DNA of 55,455 bases from Candidatus Aerophobus profundus SCGC AAA252-L23. GTDB lineage: Bacteria; Aerophobota; Aerophobia; Aerophobales; Aerophobaceae. Each line of letters starts with the position of its first letter. The first letter of the stretch is position 1. Positions 27,295-52,752 of the stretch are shown one piece after another. The notes below the pieces were generated by a model that saw nothing but the letters and a program-made list of their open reading frames with translations, was not told the origin of the DNA and did not search any database. Where the stretch lies: NCBI GenBank assembly GCA_000402295.1, contig AQRW01000190.1, positions 1 through 55,455 on the forward strand, given 5' to 3'. Made by a program: the position numbers and the translations under genes.

Positions 27295-27330
27295 GATTTC
27301 ACCTGTGAGTCCTATCTTCACCCATAAGGA

Positions 27331-27358
27331 AGTATAATAACCGGTGCGGAGATGTCAA
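27331..27358 (-). promoter_or_regulatory. sigma70-like promoter TTGACA-16-TATACT for the hicBA operon
   Basis: Minus strand: TTGACA (27358-27353), a 16-nt spacer, TATACT (27336-27331), about 37 nt upstream of the ATG at 27294. Confidence 0.55.
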
Positions 27359-27370
27359 GAATTTAACATG

Positions 27371-27437
27371 TGTCAAGGGACACCATCTCTTACGAGGTTA
27401 GGGGACACCAACCTTTACGAATTATTATTCAAAAGAA
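27371..27437. repeat. dispersed about 67-bp repeat (TGTCAAGNGACACCATCTCTTACGAGGTT..GGACACCAAC.TTTACGAATTATTA.TCAAAAGAA)
   Basis: Other copies at 40302..40368 (near-identical), 43122..43213 (expanded, three sub-repeats) and 31088..31124 (partial). It contains two 17-nt direct sub-repeats: GACACCATCTCTTACGA and GACACCAACCTTTACGA. Confidence 0.8.
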
Positions 27438-27467
27438 GATCTTTGCTGTGGGATTTTATGGGGCTTT

Positions 27468-27498
27468 CTCCGATAAATCGGACCACTACAATATGGGG
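27468..27498. repeat. REP-like hairpin, family 3 (TCCGATAAATCGGACCNCTACAATATGGGG)
   Basis: Copies at 43292..43320 and 52510..52540. The stem is TCCGAT/ATCGGA. Confidence 0.75.
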
Positions 27499-27536
27499 GT
27501 TTTTCGCCAGCGTTCTATCTTGGTCCGTTAAGAGTG

Positions 27537-27872
27537 TTAAAGAAATTCGATGTGATTTTCCATTTCTTGCTGACTAAGAAGCTGGGCAACGAGTTCAATC
27601 ATACGAATACACTGTCCTACAGACAAACGCAAGGGATGAGCGTATAAGATCCCTCTATGTTTCCTTCCCTCTTGATTCCAGCGATGAGCTATTTTGAGCA
27701 AATCTGTATCATGAGTAACAATTACTGCTCCCAATCTGGAAGCACGCTGTAGATGATATTCATCGCTTTTCCCTAAATCTTCCCTATCTCGTGCTGATAC
27801 AACCTGCAGATTCCTTCTTCTAAGACCCTCCACAATGCCCGCCTCAATATTTTCATCGCAATAGATTTTCAT
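27537..27872 (-). CDS. DUF5615-family PIN-like (Mut7-C-like) putative toxin
   Basis: MKIYCDENIEAGIVEGLRRRNLQVVSA...VIVTHDTDLL. Overlaps the stop of the upstream DUF433 gene. Confidence 0.65.
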   Translation of the reverse strand: MKIYCDENIEAGIVEGLRRRNLQVVSARDREDLGKSDEYHLQRASRLGAVIVTHDTDLLKIAHRWNQEGRKHRGILYAHPLRLSVGQCIRMIELVAQLLSQQEMENHIEFL

Positions 27873-28189
27873 TCCTCAGACTTGGTCTTTAATTTAGATG
27901 GGTAAAGATTTCTCAGTTCTTTCAGGAAGATCTCCTCTTTTTTGTATGCGTTATCCAGCTCCAATTTGTTTTCATAGTAGTAGGAAAGAGCATCATGAAT
28001 TTGAGCCAGAGTTAAGTGAGGGAACTGTTGTATCATCTCATCCGGTGTCATCCCCCCGAATTCGTATCGAATAGCAATATCCATAACCTTGGTGCGTGTT
28101 CCCGCAATTACGGGAGTTTCCTTCCTAATTCCGGGATCAACGGTCACATAGGGATGTTTCAATTCACTTGGCCTGACATTGGTAGACAT
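27869..28189 (-). CDS. DUF433 domain protein (putative antitoxin partner)
   Basis: HPYVTVDPGIRKETPVIAGTRTKVMDIAIRYEFGGMTPDEMIQQFPHLTLAQIHDALSYYYEN is the classic DUF433 pattern. Confidence 0.75.
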   Translation of the reverse strand: MSTNVRPSELKHPYVTVDPGIRKETPVIAGTRTKVMDIAIRYEFGGMTPDEMIQQFPHLTLAQIHDALSYYYENKLELDNAYKKEEIFLKELRNLYPSKLKTKSEE

Positions 28190-28224
28190 CTCTGCCTCCT
28201 TACTCTTTATTGACAGTGTTCAGA

Positions 28225-28414
28225 CATTGTAATAATCGAAGATTTCAAGACCTTGTGTAGTGAGTTTGATAACTCTATTTGCCTTATCTTAACTTTCTTT
28301 GATGAAGGGTAGATGTTTCTCTTTCGTTGTCTCAACTATCGTTCTGGGTTTTTGCGTTGCTTGGTATTGTATACTTTCTTTGCCAGATGTCCAATCTTGC
28401 CAAAAAGGGACGGT
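28225..28414. repeat. 190-bp cassette shared with 40901..41090; carries a minus-strand TTGGAC-17-TACAAT promoter
   Basis: Gap-free alignment by eye to 40901..41090. The -35 is at 28394-28389 and the -10 at 28371-28366 (minus strand). In the second copy they are at 41070-41065 and 41047-41042. Confidence 0.8.
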
Positions 28415-28536
28415 GGAAATGGTAAACTGAATTCCTGGTACTATGGTAAACAGAAATCCTATATGGATGGTAAACAGAAATCCCATTTCGGAAGAGCTCC
28501 TGTATAGTTTTAGAAAACTCTACAGGAGAGGAAATG
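28414..28536 (+). mobile_element. solo left end of the IS21-family element (no transposase)
   Basis: Matches 35638..35808 from the terminal TGGAAATGGTAAACTG through the istA ATG, but with 3 rather than 5 of the 24-bp phased GGTAAACAGAAATCC repeats (at 28421, 28445, 28469). Similarity ends right after the ATG. Confidence 0.8.
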
Positions 28537-28552
28537 GACAAGGAGGAGTGAA

Positions 28553-30832: not shown

Positions 30833-31166
30833 GAACGTACTCAAAGATATTAGGCAAAGCAAGCGACCTGATTCTTTTGTTTTCGTCTTATATCCCTGGA
30901 CGGAATTTCAGTCTCTTTTGTTGCCATCCTTAGTAGGACACGAAATTGGACATTTGAAAGAATCCAAAGAAAATCTGTGTGAGCTCTTCTTGCCAGAAAC
31001 CTTACATAAACCGAGCGTAGAAGCGCTGGTGCGGCGTCTGGCCCAAGAACCTCTGTATTCCAGTCAATCAACCACCCAATCACATACCTCAAGGGACACC
31101 ATCTCTTGCGAAGTTAGTGGACACTTCATCACCAAAACCTTGCTTTGTACCTTATCTTTGCTATAA
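30813..31166 (+). CDS. hypothetical protein with an HExxH motif (VGHEIGH), C-terminally replaced by repeat sequence
   Basis: Has a zinc-metallopeptidase-like HEIGH. From about 31088 the ORF runs into the dispersed TGTCAAG-type repeat, so the C-terminus is probably not native. Confidence 0.35.
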   Translation: MPKSFVENVLKDIRQSKRPDSFVFVLYPWTEFQSLLLPSLVGHEIGHLKESKENLCELFLPETLHKPSVEALVRRLAQEPLYSSQSTTQSHTSRDTISCEVSGHFITKTLLCTLSLL

Positions 31167-35637: not shown

Positions 35638-35805
35638 TGGAAATGGTAAACTGAATTACTGGTACTATGGTAAACAGAAATCCCATGGTAGTGGTAAATA
35701 GAATTCCCATGGTAATGGTAAGCAGAAATCCTATATGGATGGTAAACAGAATTCCCATCTCGGAAGAACTCCTGTATAGTTTTAGAAAACTTTACAGGAG
35801 AGGAA

Positions 35806-37365
35806 ATGATAAGAGAAAAAATGTACGAAAAAGTTCAACTTTTGAAAAGACTGGGATATCCCAGATCAAAGATAAGCTCTGATCTGGAAATAGACCCCAG
35901 GACCGCGGCCAAGTATTACGTTATGGATGAAAGGCAGTTCAAGACTTACCGCAGAGAGCACATGTTTCGGGATAAGGTGCTGGAAGAATATAAGGAAGAT
36001 ATCCTCAAAGTGTACAAGGTAAATGAATTTCACAGGCTTAATATGAGTGCCGTATATGATTATCTGGAAGAGAAATATGGCCCTCTTGCGGCCAATGAAC
36101 AAACCTTGCGCAACTACATAGATTATCTTATTAAGACAGACAAGTTAAGGTTGAATGAGAAGATAAGACTCTATTGCGAAGTTCCGGAACTTCCCTTTGG
36201 AAAACAGATGCAGCTTGATTTTGGCCAGTACCGGTGCAAAAGTGGACTTAAGCTCTATATATTTGCCTCTTTGCTTTCGGCAAGTCGCTATAAGTACGTC
36301 AATTTTCAGGACCATCCCTTCAGGACAAAGGAGGTTATTGGTCATCTGCTTAATTGTTTTGATTATTTCAGAGGAGTACCTGAGGAGATGGTTATTGATC
36401 AGGATAACTTAATGGTAGTGAGCGAGAATGCCGGGGACATAATCTACACCGATGATTTTAAGTATTTTATCGAGGAGCAAAAGATAAGAATGTATGTGTG
36501 CCGGGCAGCAGATCCTGAAACAAAAGGAAAAATTGAGAACCTCATTAAATTTGTAAAAAGCAATTTGCTCTCGATAAGGGATTTTAAGAGTGCAGATGAG
36601 GCAAATGAAAGTGGGTTTAAATGGCTCAAAAGAAGGGCAAACGGGAAGATATCCCAGGCTACCAAGCAGATACCGGCACTTCTGATTGATGAGGAAAGAG
36701 AACACCTTAGATCTGTAGGGAACTCCCTATTCAGGAAAGGCTCCCTTATAGGCAGAGAAAAGAGGAATGCAAACGAGAAAGCTTGTATATCAGTAGAAGC
36801 CTCGAGCTATCAGCTGCCTTTAAAATATCAGAACAAAACCGTTGAGATCTACCTCACCAAACACAAGCTTTTCGTCTTTGATCTCTACACAGCAAAGGAG
36901 ATTATTGAGTATGAGCTTTCTCCTATTCCCGGAAGAATATTCTCTAAGAGAGAACACCGAAGGGAGAGGGAGAAAACAGCCCAGGAGCTGAAAACGCTTG
37001 TTTCTGAGATGTTTGAATCAAAGAGCTGGAAGAGCTTTACCATGAGGAATTTTAAAGCCTTTTCCCGGTATGTCAGAGACCAATGTCTGGAGGCGAAAAG
37101 ATACTTTCTGGTCAAGGATATTGACCTTGATATTCTGGAGCAAGCTCTCAAATATTGCCTCAAGAATGATACGCTAAGTTTTTCCCACTTGAATGATACC
37201 TATGCCTATTTTAAGCATGAGTCTGAGGGACCCAATGATATCCTCAAGGAAATACAAACACTGGACCGCAAGTACCAAGGTGCGCATGAACCTTTAGAGG
37301 TCAATGAGAGAAGTTTATCTGTGTATAAAGAGCTCATCGGGATAAGCAAAGGAGCAGTTACATGA
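35806..37365 (+). CDS. istA: IS21-family transposase IstA
   Basis: 519 aa. N-terminal HTH, DDE-region pattern (QMQLDFGQY..., VIDQDNLMV, PETKGKIENLIKFVK). Overlaps istB by ATGA. Confidence 0.85.
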   Translation: MIREKMYEKVQLLKRLGYPRSKISSDLEIDPRTAAKYYVMDERQFKTYRREHMFRDKVLEEYKEDILKVYKVNEFHRLNMSAVYDYLEEKYGPLAANEQTLRNYIDYLIKTDKLRLNEKIRLYCEVPELPFGKQMQLDFGQYRCKSGLKLYIFASLLSASRYKYVNFQDHPFRTKEVIGHLLNCFDYFRGVPEEMVIDQDNLMVVSENAGDIIYTDDFKYFIEEQKIRMYVCRAADPETKGKIENLIKFVKSNLLSIRDFKSADEANESGFKWLKRRANGKISQATKQIPALLIDEEREHLRSVGNSLFRKGSLIGREKRNANEKACISVEASSYQLPLKYQNKTVEIYLTKHKLFVFDLYTAKEIIEYELSPIPGRIFSKREHRREREKTAQELKTLVSEMFESKSWKSFTMRNFKAFSRYVRDQCLEAKRYFLVKDIDLDILEQALKYCLKNDTLSFSHLNDTYAYFKHESEGPNDILKEIQTLDRKYQGAHEPLEVNERSLSVYKELIGISKGAVT

Positions 37366-38105
37366 AAGCCTATGAAGAGACTCTGAGCTTTTTAAGCACC
37401 CTGAATCTGAAAGGAATAGCCAATAATCTTGATGAAATGATACATGATGCAGAGATAAGCAAAACCTCCTATATTACCTTTCTCAACACCCTATTTACCA
37501 CTGAGATATCTTATAGAGTTAAACGCCGTGTGCAGAGAAACATGGTGGCAGCTCATTTTCCCGTGATAAAGAGAATTTCGGATTTTGAGTTTGGCCGGGT
37601 CAAGGGAATAGGAAAATCAGAAGCGGTAAATCTTCTTGACTGTGCTTGGATAGATAACAAAGAGAATCTCTTATTCTTTGGTCCCCCTGGTGTAGGGAAA
37701 ACGCACTTAGCCATATCCTTTGCGGTGGCTGCTGTAGAAAAAGGATATAGTGTTTGTTTTGAGAAAATTGCCAACCTCATCAAGCTTTTGAGAACGGCAG
37801 AGATCCAGAAAAAATCTGAATACCGGATCAGAAGAATAATGAAGTCAAGCCTAGCCGTAATTGACGAGATCGGATACACTTCGATTGAGAGACGAGAGGC
37901 CAATTTGTTTTTCAACCTGATTAGTGAAATGTATGAAAAATTATCCATTATCATTACTTCCAATAAAAGTTTTGAGAACTGGGCTGAGATGATGGGTGAC
38001 AGTGTCATGACCACAGCGTTGCTGGACAGACTATTGCATCACGCTAGGATTTTCAATATAGATGGAGAATCCTACAGAATAAAAAATCAGAAAAAGGAGG
38101 TGTGA
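37362..38105 (+). CDS. istB: IS21-family helper ATPase IstB
   Basis: Walker A FFGPPGVGKTHLA, Walker B LAVIDEIGY, ALLDRLLHH. Confidence 0.9.
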   Translation: MKAYEETLSFLSTLNLKGIANNLDEMIHDAEISKTSYITFLNTLFTTEISYRVKRRVQRNMVAAHFPVIKRISDFEFGRVKGIGKSEAVNLLDCAWIDNKENLLFFGPPGVGKTHLAISFAVAAVEKGYSVCFEKIANLIKLLRTAEIQKKSEYRIRRIMKSSLAVIDEIGYTSIERREANLFFNLISEMYEKLSIIITSNKSFENWAEMMGDSVMTTALLDRLLHHARIFNIDGESYRIKNQKKEV

Positions 38106-38194
38106 TCATTTCTAACTTCTTGAGAAATGGGAAATCTGTTTACCGGAACACTGGGAAATGTACTTACCGAAGGGGTGGGAAAAGTACTTGACAT

Positions 38195-38422
38195 TTACAG
38201 CTTTAGCTCATGTTCTTTTGCCAGAGCAAGAAAGTCATCGTCGTGCGTAAATATGGTCAACTTCTTTTCTGAGGCAAACTTCAATTGAGCTTTGTCAGTA
38301 AGTCCTAGGTTTCCGACATCTTTGGCCGAGATAGCCTTCACACCCCGACGCCTTAAACCCTGGGCAATTGCCACATTTGCACTTTCATTGGTGTAGATGC
38401 AGATTGTTTCCTGCTTACTCAT
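38195..38422 (-). pseudogene. 5' part of the IS21-disrupted DUF5615 PIN-like toxin gene
   Basis: MSKQETICIYTNESANVAIAQGLRRRGVKAISA...IFTHDDDFL. The last codons and the stop (CTG TAA) are supplied by the IS end. Confidence 0.85.
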
Positions 38423-38712
38423 TTATCTTTAAGTTGATACTGTTTCCTTAGTTTCTCCACTTGGGCTTTCCGTTGTCTAATTTCTCGGTCCAACTCTTCT
38501 CTATGTTCATAGTAATAGGATAGAACATCGTGTACCTGGGACAAATCCAGATATGGATGAGCATCAATAATCTCATCGGGCGTATAACCTAAGTACTCGT
38601 ACTCAATAACTAGGTCGATCACCCTTGTTCTGGTTCCGGAGATAACGGGGCTTCCTCCACATATGCTCTTATCCCGGATAATATAGGGATGTGTAGTCAC
38701 TGTTTTGCTCAT
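38419..38712 (-). CDS. DUF433 domain protein (partner of the disrupted DUF5615 gene)
   Basis: HPYIIRDKSICGGSPVISGTRTRVIDLVIEYEYLGYTPDEIIDAHPYLDLSQVHDVLSYYYEH. Confidence 0.75.
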   Translation of the reverse strand: MSKTVTTHPYIIRDKSICGGSPVISGTRTRVIDLVIEYEYLGYTPDEIIDAHPYLDLSQVHDVLSYYYEHREELDREIRQRKAQVEKLRKQYQLKDK

Positions 38713-39042
38713 TTTATGACCTCTCCAGGATTGTATTAGCAAATTCCAAGCACAAAACTCGAAACTATTCTATACTTACCTTGCTGTCCCTAAGTTTTTG
38801 CAAAAGCTTTCTTATGCTCCTTCTTACTTGTTCCCACGCCTTCTGCTCATCAAGAAACTTCTTGGCCGGTTTGGAATATTCTACTTTCCACTTCTCACCT
38901 CTATTTCTTATCCACCAAAGACTGTAGTGACCAGCAGGGAGATGTCAAGGGGAAGGAAAGGAGGAATAGTGACCACGGTGGCGTGTTTGAGGCAGTTGTG
39001 GAAAATAGATGAGATATGTATGCGCGGTAGGCCCGTAGAGCA

Positions 39043-40249: not shown

Positions 40250-40299
40250 TATCTCGTGCTGATACAACCTGCAGATTCCTTCTTCTAAGACCCTCCACA
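40250..40299. repeat. 50-bp exact fragment of the DUF5615 gene (identical to 27785..27834)
   Basis: TATCTCGTGCTGATACAACCTGCAGATTCCTTCTTCTAAGACCCTCCACA occurs at both places. Here it is fused directly to the TGTCAAG-type repeat. Confidence 0.85.
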
Positions 40300-40402
40300 G
40301 ATGTCAAGTGACACCATCTCTTGCGAGGTTGGTGGACACCAACTTTTACGAATTATTACTCAAAAGAAAATCTTTACTGTAGGGTTTTTGGGTCCCCGAT
40401 GA

Positions 40403-40612
40403 TCAGGCATAAATAAGTCTTCCCTTAGGGGTGGGGATTTCTCTGCCCAGACTTCTTGCTGTCTCTATCCACTGGGCAATTACTATTTGGGCATTACCAA
40501 TAGCCGCCTGGTAGGTAGGTCCATCTGCCATGCAGCCCGGTAGTTCGGGAACCTCGGCTACAAATGCTCCATCTTCTTCACTCCAATAGATTATTACCTC
40601 ATATTTATACAT
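40403..40612 (-). CDS. hicB: HicB-family antitoxin (UPF0150-type)
   Basis: MYKYEVIIYWSEEDGAFVAEVPELPGCMADGPTYQAAIGNAQIVIAQWIE. Confidence 0.8.
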   Translation of the reverse strand: MYKYEVIIYWSEEDGAFVAEVPELPGCMADGPTYQAAIGNAQIVIAQWIETARSLGREIPTPKGRLIYA

Positions 40613-40865
40613 CCTTAGCCCCCTCGCAAAGTCTATATTTCACTATTATGCTTCTTATTTGTTTTACCTGGTAGGTCTTTGCTTTCCCATTGCTCAACGG
40701 TTGAATATTTATGATTTCCGGGATTCCTTCCCGAGTGAGTATATAATGATCTCCCTTGATCCGCTCAACAAAGCCCAAATTTAGAAGGGTTTTCCTCAGT
40801 CCACTGAAATCAATATTCTTGTCCGAGAGACCCGTTAATATCTTTTCTAAGGTTTTTCCCCTCAA
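40605..40865 (-). CDS. hicA: HicA-like toxin
   Basis: LRKTLLNLGFVERIKGDHYILTREG. Overlaps the downstream hicB. Confidence 0.55.
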   Translation of the reverse strand: MRGKTLEKILTGLSDKNIDFSGLRKTLLNLGFVERIKGDHYILTREGIPEIINIQPLSNGKAKTYQVKQIRSIIVKYRLCEGAKDV

Positions 40866-40900
40866 ATTTCCTCCACGGCTGCTTGTCTTTTGGTCTATAA

Positions 40901-41090
40901 CATTGTGACAATTGAAGATTCCCAGATCTTGTGTAGTGAGTTTGACAACTCTATTTGCCTTAGGTTAACTTTCTCTGATGAGGGGTAGATGTTTCTCTTT
41001 CGTTGTCTCAACTATCGTTCTGGGTTTTTGCTTTGCTTGGTATTGTATACTTTCTTTGCCAGATGTCCAATCTTGCCAAAAAGGGACGGT
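40901..41090. repeat. second copy of the 190-bp promoter/leader cassette
   Basis: See 28225..28414. Confidence 0.8.
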
Positions 41091-41233
41091 TTTATTCTTC
41101 CGCCACTCCTGATGTGGGTCTTCGTCATTCGAGTGACTTATTTTAGGGAGGGTAAGGCCTCTTTACGCTTACGAGCGGAGCAGTCAACTGCGAGATGTCT
41201 TCTTGTTCCTTTGTCACGAGAACTCAATCGCAT

Positions 41234-41457
41234 TTATGATTCTCCCAACCATTGTTCTTTTCTGATATTCGCCTGTCTCAGGACTCTAATCAATAGATCC
41301 ACACTGATTTCTTTTCTGTGCGGATTTGTGGAACGGTAAGCCTCAGATCTTCTTTTACCATATACAGGTGTTTGCCACCCGCATAGGGCCCTTCAAATCC
41401 AAATTTCCTAAGCTTATTTATCAGTTCATTGTAAGATAAAGGGCTTAGTTTGGGCAT
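41234..41457 (-). pseudogene. hicA toxin gene with a 1-nt frameshift (length 224 nt)
   Basis: MPKLSPLSYNELINKLRKFGFEGPYAGGKHLYMVKEDLRLTVP, then the frame shifts to TNPHRKEISVDLLIRVLRQANIRKEQWLGES*. The junction is near plus-strand GG 41330-41331. Confidence 0.7.
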
Positions 41458-41706: not shown

Positions 41707-42410
41707 AAACGGTACCTCCTGTTTTCCTTTGTGCGAGCTTATTTAGTATATTTCATGGTCAACGGGGTTTTGCTCTTATCGGGGTTCTTACGCACCGTGG
41801 AGACTTGCTCTTTCACCTTTCAGTTCTATCTTCATCCATCAAGAACTACAACGACCGGGGCGGGAGATGTCAAGAACTGGTGACAGAGGTTACCGGCCAC
41901 CAGCTCAAGGCACCCTTTCATACCAGGAAGGAAAGACTAAGCTTCTGTTTAAGTACAGCTAATTAGTGTCCGATCCATGGGGTTACATCTCCACCTTCCC
42001 AGTTTTCCTCTTTACTGTGGCATTTCTTGGTCCATTATGATCGGGTATAAATGAGTCTTCGTGTCCTGGTAGGCCGGCTTAGTGCATTGTGTGAATCTGC
42101 CTTGAAAAAGCCAGGAAGATTAAGTAGAAGATATTGTTGATGCCCACAGGTGTAAAGGTTAAAGCATCTTCCTCCACCGATAGTGTCCCCACCAAATTTT
42201 CCATCTGCCCAATTGGTATGGTTCTGATTCTTTGTTTCCTTTTGGTTTCCTGCCGGCTGGTTATCAGTTGTTCCAGGGAAAATATAGCCGGAGGAGAGAC
42301 ACTGTCAAGGAGAAAGGGATGCGAGCTGAGCAAGGTGGCTGTCGGAACAGTAAGAGGAGTGCAGAAAGTATGACATAATTACTTTGCATTGACATGATTT
42401 GATGCGTACC

Positions 42411-43082: not shown

Positions 43083-43552
43083 GCCCAGAACATTCCCCAG
43101 CTACCGTAGAAAAGAGACAGGTGTCAAGTGACACGTATCCTTACAAATGTCAAATGACAGCATCTCTTACGAGGTTGGGAACACCAACTCTTACGAATTA
43201 TTGCTCAAAGGAAAATTTCGGTATTCTTATGCTTCCTGGTATGACAAGACAGCCAGAGAGAGGTATACTATAGTTCGGTTACATTTAAGGGTCCGATAAA
43301 TCGAACCGCTACAATATGGGGCTTTCTCAGCGGTACGCTAGAGAAGGGGAGTTTAAAAGCTCCCCTTCCTGTTTAGGGCTACCAATCAAGGCCAGAACCT
43401 CGCAATGACAAAAAAGGAAACGTTATGATGAGCTGGTGGAATCAAAAAGTAGACAAGAAAGGCAGAAAGCATATAATACTACAAGTCACTAGCCAAGTGT
43501 GATTAGCCAGGAAAGAAATGAAAAAGGGGATTAAGGAAAGAATAAGATTCTT

Positions 43553-43700
43553 TGGGTCCCTGGTGATCAGGCATAAATAAGTCTTCCCTCAGGGGTGGGG
43601 ATTTCTCTGTCCAAACTTCTTGCTGTCTCTATCCACTGAAATCAATATTTTTGTCCGAGAGACCTGTTAATATCTTTATCTAAGGGTTTTTCTACCTTAC
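43553..43700. other. hicAB deletion scar (hicB 3' end fused to hicA 5' end)
   Basis: 43553-43640 matches 40385-40475 (hicB 3' end and flank). 43638-43700 matches 40795-40860 (hicA 5' region). The roughly 320 bp between them is missing. Confidence 0.75.
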
Positions 43701-47008: not shown

Positions 47009-47088
47009 AGATGGCCACGTCACTGTGTTCCTCGCAATGACAACGGTGCTTCTGGCAACGATATGACGGAGTCAGCGGAACGTAAGCT

Positions 47089-47328
47089 GGGGTTTGCGGA
47101 TGTCTTGCCGGGATCTTAAAACCCATCTCTCCTCATGTCCTACGCCACACCTTCTCAGTCAACTGCATCAAGAAAGGAATCTCCACCAGAGCTCTGAAAA
47201 GCCTGTTGGGCCACGACAGGTTGACAACTACGGAAATTTACCGTAAGTTATTATCAGAGGACGTGAGGAGGGAATTCTCTAACAGGCCATACATTGAACT
47301 TAAGTATCATGGTAAATCTCAAAAATAG
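47089..47328 (+). pseudogene. C-terminal fragment of a tyrosine recombinase/integrase
   Basis: ISPHVLRHTFSVNCIKKGISTRALKSLLGHDRLTTTEIYRKL carries the HxLRH, LGH and catalytic-Y region. There is no start codon or N-terminal domain. The stop is at 47326-47328. Confidence 0.75.
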
Positions 47329-52006: not shown

Positions 52007-52752
52007 GACCGCATACCTTTTGGGTTAAGATACTAGTAGTTAGTTTCCAAAATAACCTGATATTTCTCCACTGTCATTGCGAGCCTGCCGAAAGCAGGCG
52101 TGGCAATCCCCAAGAGAACAGGTTTTCCATGAGATTGCTTCACTTTTCTCGCAATGACAAATCGTTGTAAGGTTGTTTAGGAAACGTACTACTAGAAGGG
52201 TGGGCAACAGGGTTGGTTAAAGAAAGTAGCCGCCGGATAGTGAGGATAAAACCCTTTTAGTTTGTAGGCAGCTCTTCCCATCAAAAATAATTCTACTTGC
52301 TTAGTCAAATCCTCTTTTTTAGTCAACCTGAGATAATCTTCCAGTGATATTCTCTCTTTGATTCCCAATTGCTTGAATCGATGAAAATAGACCATCTGGT
52401 AAACCATTACCTTCTCGCCAAATATTTCCTGGCTGATTCATCCAAGGAGACTGCTGATAAAGTGGTTTTTTGTAGAGGTTTCATTTATGAAACTTGCTTT
52501 AATAAAGAGTCCGATAAATCGGACCGCTACAATATTGGGGTTTCTCAGCAGTCTCCAAGACATTGGTTATAAATTACGAGACTTCCGGAGAAAAATCAAG
52601 GGACGTACTGTTGACAAAATACTACTCATTAATACATTAATAGTTTAATATAGTGATTTCTTCTCCCAAGGGAGAAAAAAGGCTTGGGAAAAGACAGACC
52701 AGATAGGGGGAAGAAAATCCATATATCTGAGGAAAAGGGGATAACACAAAAA

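Follow-up and report, generated by a model that had tools for sequence, protein, structure and literature searches.

Genes and features of the two loci

Two toxin–antitoxin (TA) operons of unrelated families lie on the minus strand of the window (the whole stretch of DNA that was analysed, 55,455 nt), each preceded by a copy of the same non-coding repeat. At locus A, a DUF433 antitoxin gene is followed by a DUF5615/PIN_10 toxin gene; at locus B, a hicA toxin gene is followed by a short hicB-like antitoxin gene. These genes and the sequences around them are, in window coordinates:

27537–27872, minus strand: DUF5615/PIN_10 toxin gene of locus A (Pfam PF18480, PF18478)
27869–28189, minus strand: DUF433 (COG2442) antitoxin gene of locus A (Pfam PF04255, E = 5e-15)
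28224–28250, minus strand: 27-nt patch of copy A (D-type), TCTTGAAATCTTCGATTATTACAATGT, 22/27 identical with copy B
28251–28414, minus strand: distal upstream module of copy A, 164 nt, of the DUF433/DUF5615 operon; 157/164 identical to 40927–41090
28366–28393, minus strand: σ70-like promoter candidate TGGACA-16-TACAAT of copy A (consensus scan)
28414–28536, plus strand: solo IS21-family left end cutting the upstream homology of copy A, about 90% identical to 35686–35808
40250–40299, minus strand: 50-nt DUF5615 relic (nucleotides 39–88 of the ORF), 3' of hicAB and the repeat R1, 100% identical to 27785–27834
40297–40392, minus strand: dispersed repeat R1 directly 3' of hicB, the downstream junction of the swapped-in block
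40403–40612, minus strand: short hicB-like (UPF0150) antitoxin gene of locus B (Pfam PF15919, PF21748)
40605–40865, minus strand: hicA toxin gene of locus B (Pfam PF07927, 26.5 bits, slightly below the 27-bit cut-off)
40900–40926, minus strand: 27-nt patch of copy B (H-type), TCTGGGAATCTTCAATTGTCACAATGT, crossover zone; from GGAATC on, it is the native hicAB leader of contig L007
40927–41090, minus strand: distal upstream module of copy B, now 5' of hicAB; same layout in contigs L006 and L015
41042–41069, minus strand: σ70-like promoter candidate TGGACA-16-TACAAT of copy B (consensus scan)
41091–41170, minus strand: native distal continuation (the “empty site” for the IS21 insertion of copy A), matching contigs L011 and L015

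A whole-genome search aligned copy A (28224–28414) with copy B (40900–41090) gap-free over 191 nt, with 12 mismatches (93.7% identity, E = 8.5e-79), which bears out the original prediction of a gap-free pair of about 190 bp. The minus-strand start codons, ATG at 28189 for locus A and TTG at 40865 for locus B, lie 34 nt downstream of the repeat in both cases, where about 35 nt had been predicted, and Pfam confirmed that the two operons belong to unrelated families. HicA of locus B has homologues by the hundreds. A further DUF433 antitoxin gene is found at 38419–38742.

The source organism is a bacterium, as indicated by the presence of sigma-70 genes and the absence of TFB, and its named protein relatives are metagenome-assembled genomes (MAGs) of Nitrospirota/Thermodesulfovibrionales. 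Its own 2.3-Mb, 70%-complete MAG contains exactly two copies of the repeat. None was detected in 60 relatives, sister species included; two core words, a 20-mer over the −35 hexamer and a 23-mer in the leader, had no match in the reference genomes of other species, and blastn against plasmid and phage collections found no match to the repeat. Six related metagenome contigs carry it as well, which together with the window makes eight copies. All eight precede TA operons in a consistent orientation, the property that had been named beforehand as the test of the prediction.

Upstream segments and TA cassettes reassort among strains

Identity is uneven along the repeat, 157 of 164 positions agreeing in the distal part against 22 of 27 in the proximal 27 nt, and the repeat is a composite, with a distal module of 164 nt and a patch of 27 nt. 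Fourteen loci, namely window A and B and the metagenome contigs L005, L006, L007 and L011–L019, were tallied according to their upstream sequence and their TA cassette:

Module of about 164 nt with DUF433: 5 loci (window A, L005, L011, L013, L014)
Module of about 164 nt with hicAB: 3 loci (window B, L006, L015)
R1 promoter with DUF433: 4 loci (L016–L019)
R1 promoter with hicAB: 1 locus (L007)
Other upstream sequence with DUF433: 1 locus (L012)

Across these loci, the two TA families are found behind at least three types of upstream sequence. The hicAB genes of L007 are 99% identical to those of locus B, and the match to the window is limited to 40302–40926, which takes in the genes, the patch and, between them, the 34-nt ribosome-binding region. 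On the 5' side of the patch of L007, the end of R1 supplies TTGACA, followed by 17 nt and CATACT, in a promoter-like site that stops 3 nt before the patch. The near-identical DUF433/DUF5615 operons of L016–L019 match the window up to 28250 and have the same succession of R1, promoter and patch upstream. The R1-associated promoter-like site of these sister strains can be written TTGACA-17-C/TATACT, about 3 nt before the patch. In L012, a third, unrelated upstream sequence is joined at the ribosome-binding site (−15). This sequence (L012 1–60) contains a perfect 8-nt inverted repeat, ATATTCAC-ctcata-GTGAATAT, just 5' of the ribosome-binding site, a layout more typical of a TA operator than that of the window copies.

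Over 332 sites, L013, which has the module of about 164 nt, differs at one site from L012 and at three from L016, which has R1 upstream, against 13 from window A. DUF433 alleles do not track the upstream type, and reassortment has therefore been repeated; judged from these alleles, the exchange of cassettes and upstream segments is both repeated and recent. A first model, in which the repeat was native to DUF433 and had been captured once by hicAB, was revised because DUF433 lies behind other segments in L016–L019 and L012, and it is also contradicted by the independence of DUF433 alleles from upstream type. As the comparison of these loci establishes, this TA/IS island, scrambled by recombination, has at least three upstream segments that can replace one another, and the repeat is one of them. 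The idea of a portable module serving different TA families holds insofar as one segment precedes two families and segments and cassettes reassort, but the module is portable only by recombination within one population.

Other repeats of the island

R1 is a dispersed repeat (consensus ...ATAATTCGTAAAAGTTSGTGTCCMCTAACCTCGTAAGAGATGGTGTCAYTTGACA) with about 10 copies genome-wide. In the window it occupies 27366–27462, 40297–40392, 43143–43237 and 31081–31124; five copies are found in L007, and it also occurs in L021–L027. It is kept at 76–88% identity in seven other genomes, from six other genera of the order. Its end gives a TTGACA −35 hexamer to hicAB (L007), DUF433/DUF5615 (L016–L019 and L025), CopG/MazF-like genes (L024) and hicB/hicA (window 27321), and it is found in non-TA contexts too. 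Judged from these occurrences, it is R1, and not the 164-nt module, that represents the dispersed and more widespread TA-associated upstream element. RNAalifold indicated no RNA structure and no covariation for R1; a hairpin with compensatory changes noticed by eye was rejected by count (76.7% paired, versus 75.6% in shuffled sequences).

A second short interspersed repeat, R2, consists of a hairpin-like TCCGATAAATCGGA followed by CTACAATATGGGG. It lies at 27469–27518 and at more than 25 other sites of the genome (for example 43287–43334 and 52505–52552), is REP-like in look and is very abundant for a genome of 2.3 Mb. Another common upstream stretch, before operons of the same family in this case, is shared by the two hicB-first operons (start codons at 27321 and 41706): 27297–27361 and 41811–41876 are 82% identical over about 65 nt. 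On the downstream side, an 84-nt element lies 3' of DUF5615 in L005, L011, L012, L013, L016, L017 and L018, and occurs in the window at 47031–47114, outside the island. The DUF5615 gene of the window has R2 and R1 downstream where most related contigs have the 84-nt element, which makes this another interchangeable flank.

Gene replacement at locus B

Locus B retains a piece of the operon found at locus A. The sequence 40250–40299, 3' of hicAB and R1, is 100% identical over 50 nt to 27785–27834, within the DUF5615 ORF of locus A. Contig L006 shows a hicAB block within the own flanks of locus A: its order is the DUF5615 body (234 nt), R1, hicB, a deleted hicA, a B-type repeat and an IS21 end reaching the junction at window position 28541, and the DUF5615 relic continues there through the rest of the gene. 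The DUF5615 fragment at locus B and the block of L006 within the flanks of A together imply that genes were replaced at locus B. A segment made of the patch, DUF433 and the first 38 nt of DUF5615 gave way to one made of the patch, hicA, hicB and R1, with a left crossover inside the patch and an illegitimate right junction. The downstream side of L015 has neither R1 nor the DUF5615 relic.

The hicA gene of L006 lacks 166 internal nucleotides, a private deletion that falls at a 6-nt microhomology (L006 618–623; window 40689–40854 missing); hicB beside it is intact, which fits a decay of TA operons in the island that begins with the toxin. A second hicAB relic lies at 43551–43690, where the 3' end of hicB is fused to the 5' end of hicA at 93–94% identity to locus B; it has no repeat upstream and is located at the edge of the island, beside a CapD-like gene.

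As traced through these junctions, the repeat came to precede two TA families because one cassette replaced another at a short stretch common to both. We consider it likely that the 191-nt repeat is the promoter-bearing upstream region of the DUF433/DUF5615 (VapBC-like) operon and that it reached hicAB by a gene swap in a hypervariable TA island. The main role of the repeats today would be to provide substrates for homologous recombination and gene conversion.

A promoter-like site and its possible regulation

A promoter scan gives TGGACA-16-TACAAT a score of 10/12 in both copies, at 28393..28366 and 41069..41042. This is the site originally described as TTGGAC-17-TACAAT; it is indeed present in both copies, but promoter-like sites in these upstream regions are no commoner than in shuffled sequence. 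The upstream region of both operons thus resembles a type II TA promoter in having a σ70-type site 5' of the first gene and in operon orientation, as a consensus match only, and the 191-nt segment is probably promoter-bearing. An imperfect inverted repeat, GCAAGAT-tggac-ATCTGGC, flanks the −35 hexamer at 41076..41058, a further likeness to type II TA promoter/operator regions, although such repeats occur here at chance frequency, and operator-like inverted repeats were dropped as a signal for that reason.

At locus B, hicAB seems to have lost its R1-associated promoter, in which case it would be transcribed from the DUF433-type region. The best candidate is the predicted TGGACA-16-TACAAT, and the leader would then be about 170 nt long and unstructured. 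Alternatively, transcription of hicAB might come by read-through from the hicB-hicA' operon that lies upstream on the same strand.

The arrangement of locus A, with a DUF433 antitoxin gene first and a PIN-like toxin gene second, is that of vapBC10 (PIN-COG2442/DUF433) of Synechocystis, whose DUF433-type antitoxin, VapB10, activates its own promoter region and binds an inverted repeat there (PMC3834315). The two systems differ in that vapBC10 transcripts start 45 bp from the ATG (PMC3834315), versus a predicted leader of about 170 nt in the window, and in that the same region also precedes hicAB here. By analogy, the repeat module might carry an operator for DUF433, and hicAB might be controlled by DUF433 in trans.

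A stronger version of this idea would make the module and the patch a selected plug-and-play regulatory unit, in which a regulator acting in trans, such as DUF433, would have its operator and co-regulate different TA families, and which selection would maintain. Besides the VapB10 precedent and the inverted repeat around the −35, it could account for the promoter hexamers being invariant in all seven copies that cover the site and for the junction of the module with hicAB in at least two distinguishable recombinants. The 69-aa HicB of locus B would also suit external control: in Pfam it matches only the N-terminal part of a HicB-like model, together with UPF0150, from which we infer that it has no DNA-binding domain. 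Nevertheless, we find such a unit unlikely. The inverted repeats do not exceed chance. When the window is compared with L011, the module (about 95%) is no better conserved than the coding DNA next to it (97%). The module occurs within a single species-level population, and the internal deletion of hicA in L006 suggests decay over maintenance.

The 27-nt patch as a junction

The patch reads TCTTGGAATCTTC[G/A]ATT[A/G]T[T/C]ACAATGT on the minus strand and heads the proximal leader of both operons. It is also found without the distal module, 5' of DUF433 in L016–L019 and 5' of hicAB in L007. Its three variable positions track the downstream cassette in all loci except L015, the patch of which is a hybrid (CGATT|GTCAC) that switches from D-type to H-type at another point than in window B; the crossover therefore took place at a different point inside the patch.

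With four upstream-by-cassette combinations and breakpoints falling in one 27-nt stretch, the patch could be more than shared homology, namely a site favoured for, or dedicated to, recombination or regulation. Its more explicit form, in which the patch and the interchangeable upstream modules make up a dedicated junction for plugging TA cassettes behind promoters, as a recombination hotspot or site or as a shared operator that puts hicAB under DUF433 in trans, seems to us improbable.

Less probable still is a role for the patch as the core of a site-specific exchange system resembling integrons, by which TA cassettes and promoters would be swapped. In its favour, breakpoints flank a single short conserved core, all four combinations occur, and the patch contains two crossover points. 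However, the patch has two copies in the genome and was not found 3' of R1 in other genera, an inverted-repeat search detected no attC-like imperfect palindrome in the module, R1 has no consensus hairpin, and other junctions lie elsewhere (between R1 and DUF5615, at −15 in L012, and in the hicA deletion). In addition, a fixed cleavage site would fit the variable crossover points within the patch less well than homologous exchange does.

The distal edge is an IS21 insertion

The other end of the 191-nt repeat, interpreted here as a promoter-bearing region left in place during a gene swap, has a different origin. Copy A adjoins, at 28414, a 123-nt solo left end of an IS21-family element. A full IS21-family copy occupies about 35638–38199, and the left end belongs to this istA/istB element. 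Its assignment to the IS21 family relies on IstB (IstB_IS21, E = 5.5e-77), IstA (rve, E = 3.6e-5, under the Pfam cut-off) and terminal repeats; the 24-nt phased terminal repeats of 35638–35782 are reproduced at 28414–28486. Among the ORFs of the 25–44 kb region searched with Pfam, IS21 istA/istB are the only mobility genes identified.

The IS end is present in window A, L014 and L006; window B, L011 and L015 have empty sites. L011 carries a DUF433/DUF5615 operon and the repeat without the IS end, and matches 41170–40900 of the window over 271 nt, and the homology of L015 to locus B reaches 41123. Since homology runs on in the IS-free L011 and L015, the distal limit at 190 nt is an IS insertion in one lineage, and since IS-free copies exist (window B, L011, L015), the IS end is a later insertion. 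Homology thus has three different distal limits (28414, 41123 and 41170), and, as read from the empty sites, the apparent size of the repeat is set by the IS21 insertion. A discrete 190-bp cassette, as originally envisaged, does not survive these observations, since an IS21 insertion makes one of its edges and a recombination joint the other, within a 27-nt patch that is also found without the rest.

For the same reasons, the original suggestion that the repeat is the terminal part of a mobile unit is largely refuted. We give very little credit to its being part of a non-autonomous transposable element or an outer IS segment with an outward promoter, even though copy A adjoins an IS21 end and dispersed repeats abound in the island. 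The IS end arrived later, no inverted repeats of at least 8 nt were found in either copy or their flanks, and, set against the criteria for MITEs, the repeat has no terminal inverted repeats, no target duplications, only two copies and variable ends, in addition to the absence of plasmid or phage matches.

The module is a poor candidate for an RNA or protein gene

A regulatory RNA or small RNA, which had also been proposed, finds no support in the results. Rfam gave no match at the gathering threshold in the whole window and none at E ≤ 1 in 40850–41300. Predicted folds are not more stable than those of shuffled sequences (z = −0.29 for leader A, +0.07 for leader B and +0.59 for the plus strand), and copies A and B adopt different minimum-free-energy folds. 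RNAalifold on seven leader copies gave −13.4 kcal/mol with a covariation term of −0.69 kcal/mol and double changes in 0 of 24 predicted pairs, a test of little power because these copies are at least 92% identical.

Opposite the leader, the plus strand has an ORF of 43–44 aa (40978–41112 and 28302–28430) with a hydrophobic core in most copies and a superficial likeness to type I toxins. It has three different C-termini among the copies, its differences are all non-synonymous, no homologue was found among 5.8 billion proteins, and a reading of the sequence 5' of its ATG revealed no Shine–Dalgarno motif. The ORF is probably spurious. It is highly improbable that the module is a gene for a small RNA, an antisense RNA or this hydrophobic peptide, there being also no stable fold on either strand.

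Equally remote is an assembly artefact, in which the two copies or chimeric contigs would stem from mis-joins at repeats. The MAG and the short contigs are short-read assemblies, in which exact repeats of 50 and 56 nt could mislead an assembler, but independent samples show both arrangements again, together with SNPs of their own, a private hicA deletion and a different number of IS repeats; chimeric contigs are unlikely because exact shared runs in the patch do not exceed about 13 nt and contigs such as L006 carry private differences.

Relation to known systems and significance

TA systems are known for a modular, “mix-and-match” evolution, in which mobile two-gene modules cluster in islands and are shuffled by recombination; Makarova et al. 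in 2009 are said to have described this modular evolution and the mosaic TA/defence islands. The present island has the same clustered two-gene modules, recombination, decaying toxins and IS insertions, and what we observe belongs to this known recombination-driven evolution and is not a new class of element. It differs from the usual mix-and-match in that the exchange is between an upstream or promoter segment and a whole cassette, not between toxin and antitoxin. Also particular to it is the base-resolution record of exchange across co-occurring strains, joined at one 27-nt stretch.

Short repeated DNAs such as Correia/CREE, ERIC and REP/BIME-type elements can supply promoter hexamers to downstream genes. 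R1, the end of which supplies a TTGACA −35, resembles such promoter-bearing dispersed repeats, whereas the 164-nt module departs from them in its two copies, its lack of inverted termini and its variable limits. In integron cassette arrays, small cassettes, many of them TA systems, have a short repeat at their borders and are exchanged as cassettes. Small TA cassettes, a short border repeat and cassette-level exchange are also seen here; unlike in integrons, there is no attC-like imperfect palindrome, and junctions fall at several unrelated positions.

The two loci thus offer a natural, base-resolved case in which TA cassettes of different families are swapped behind one upstream region and different upstream regions are placed before one cassette. 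They show that a striking non-coding repeat common to unrelated operons can arise incidentally, from cassette replacement and IS insertion, which calls for caution when new regulatory RNAs are sought through repeats. Should the DUF433-type region contain an operator for the antitoxin, the swap would also make TA families regulate one another.
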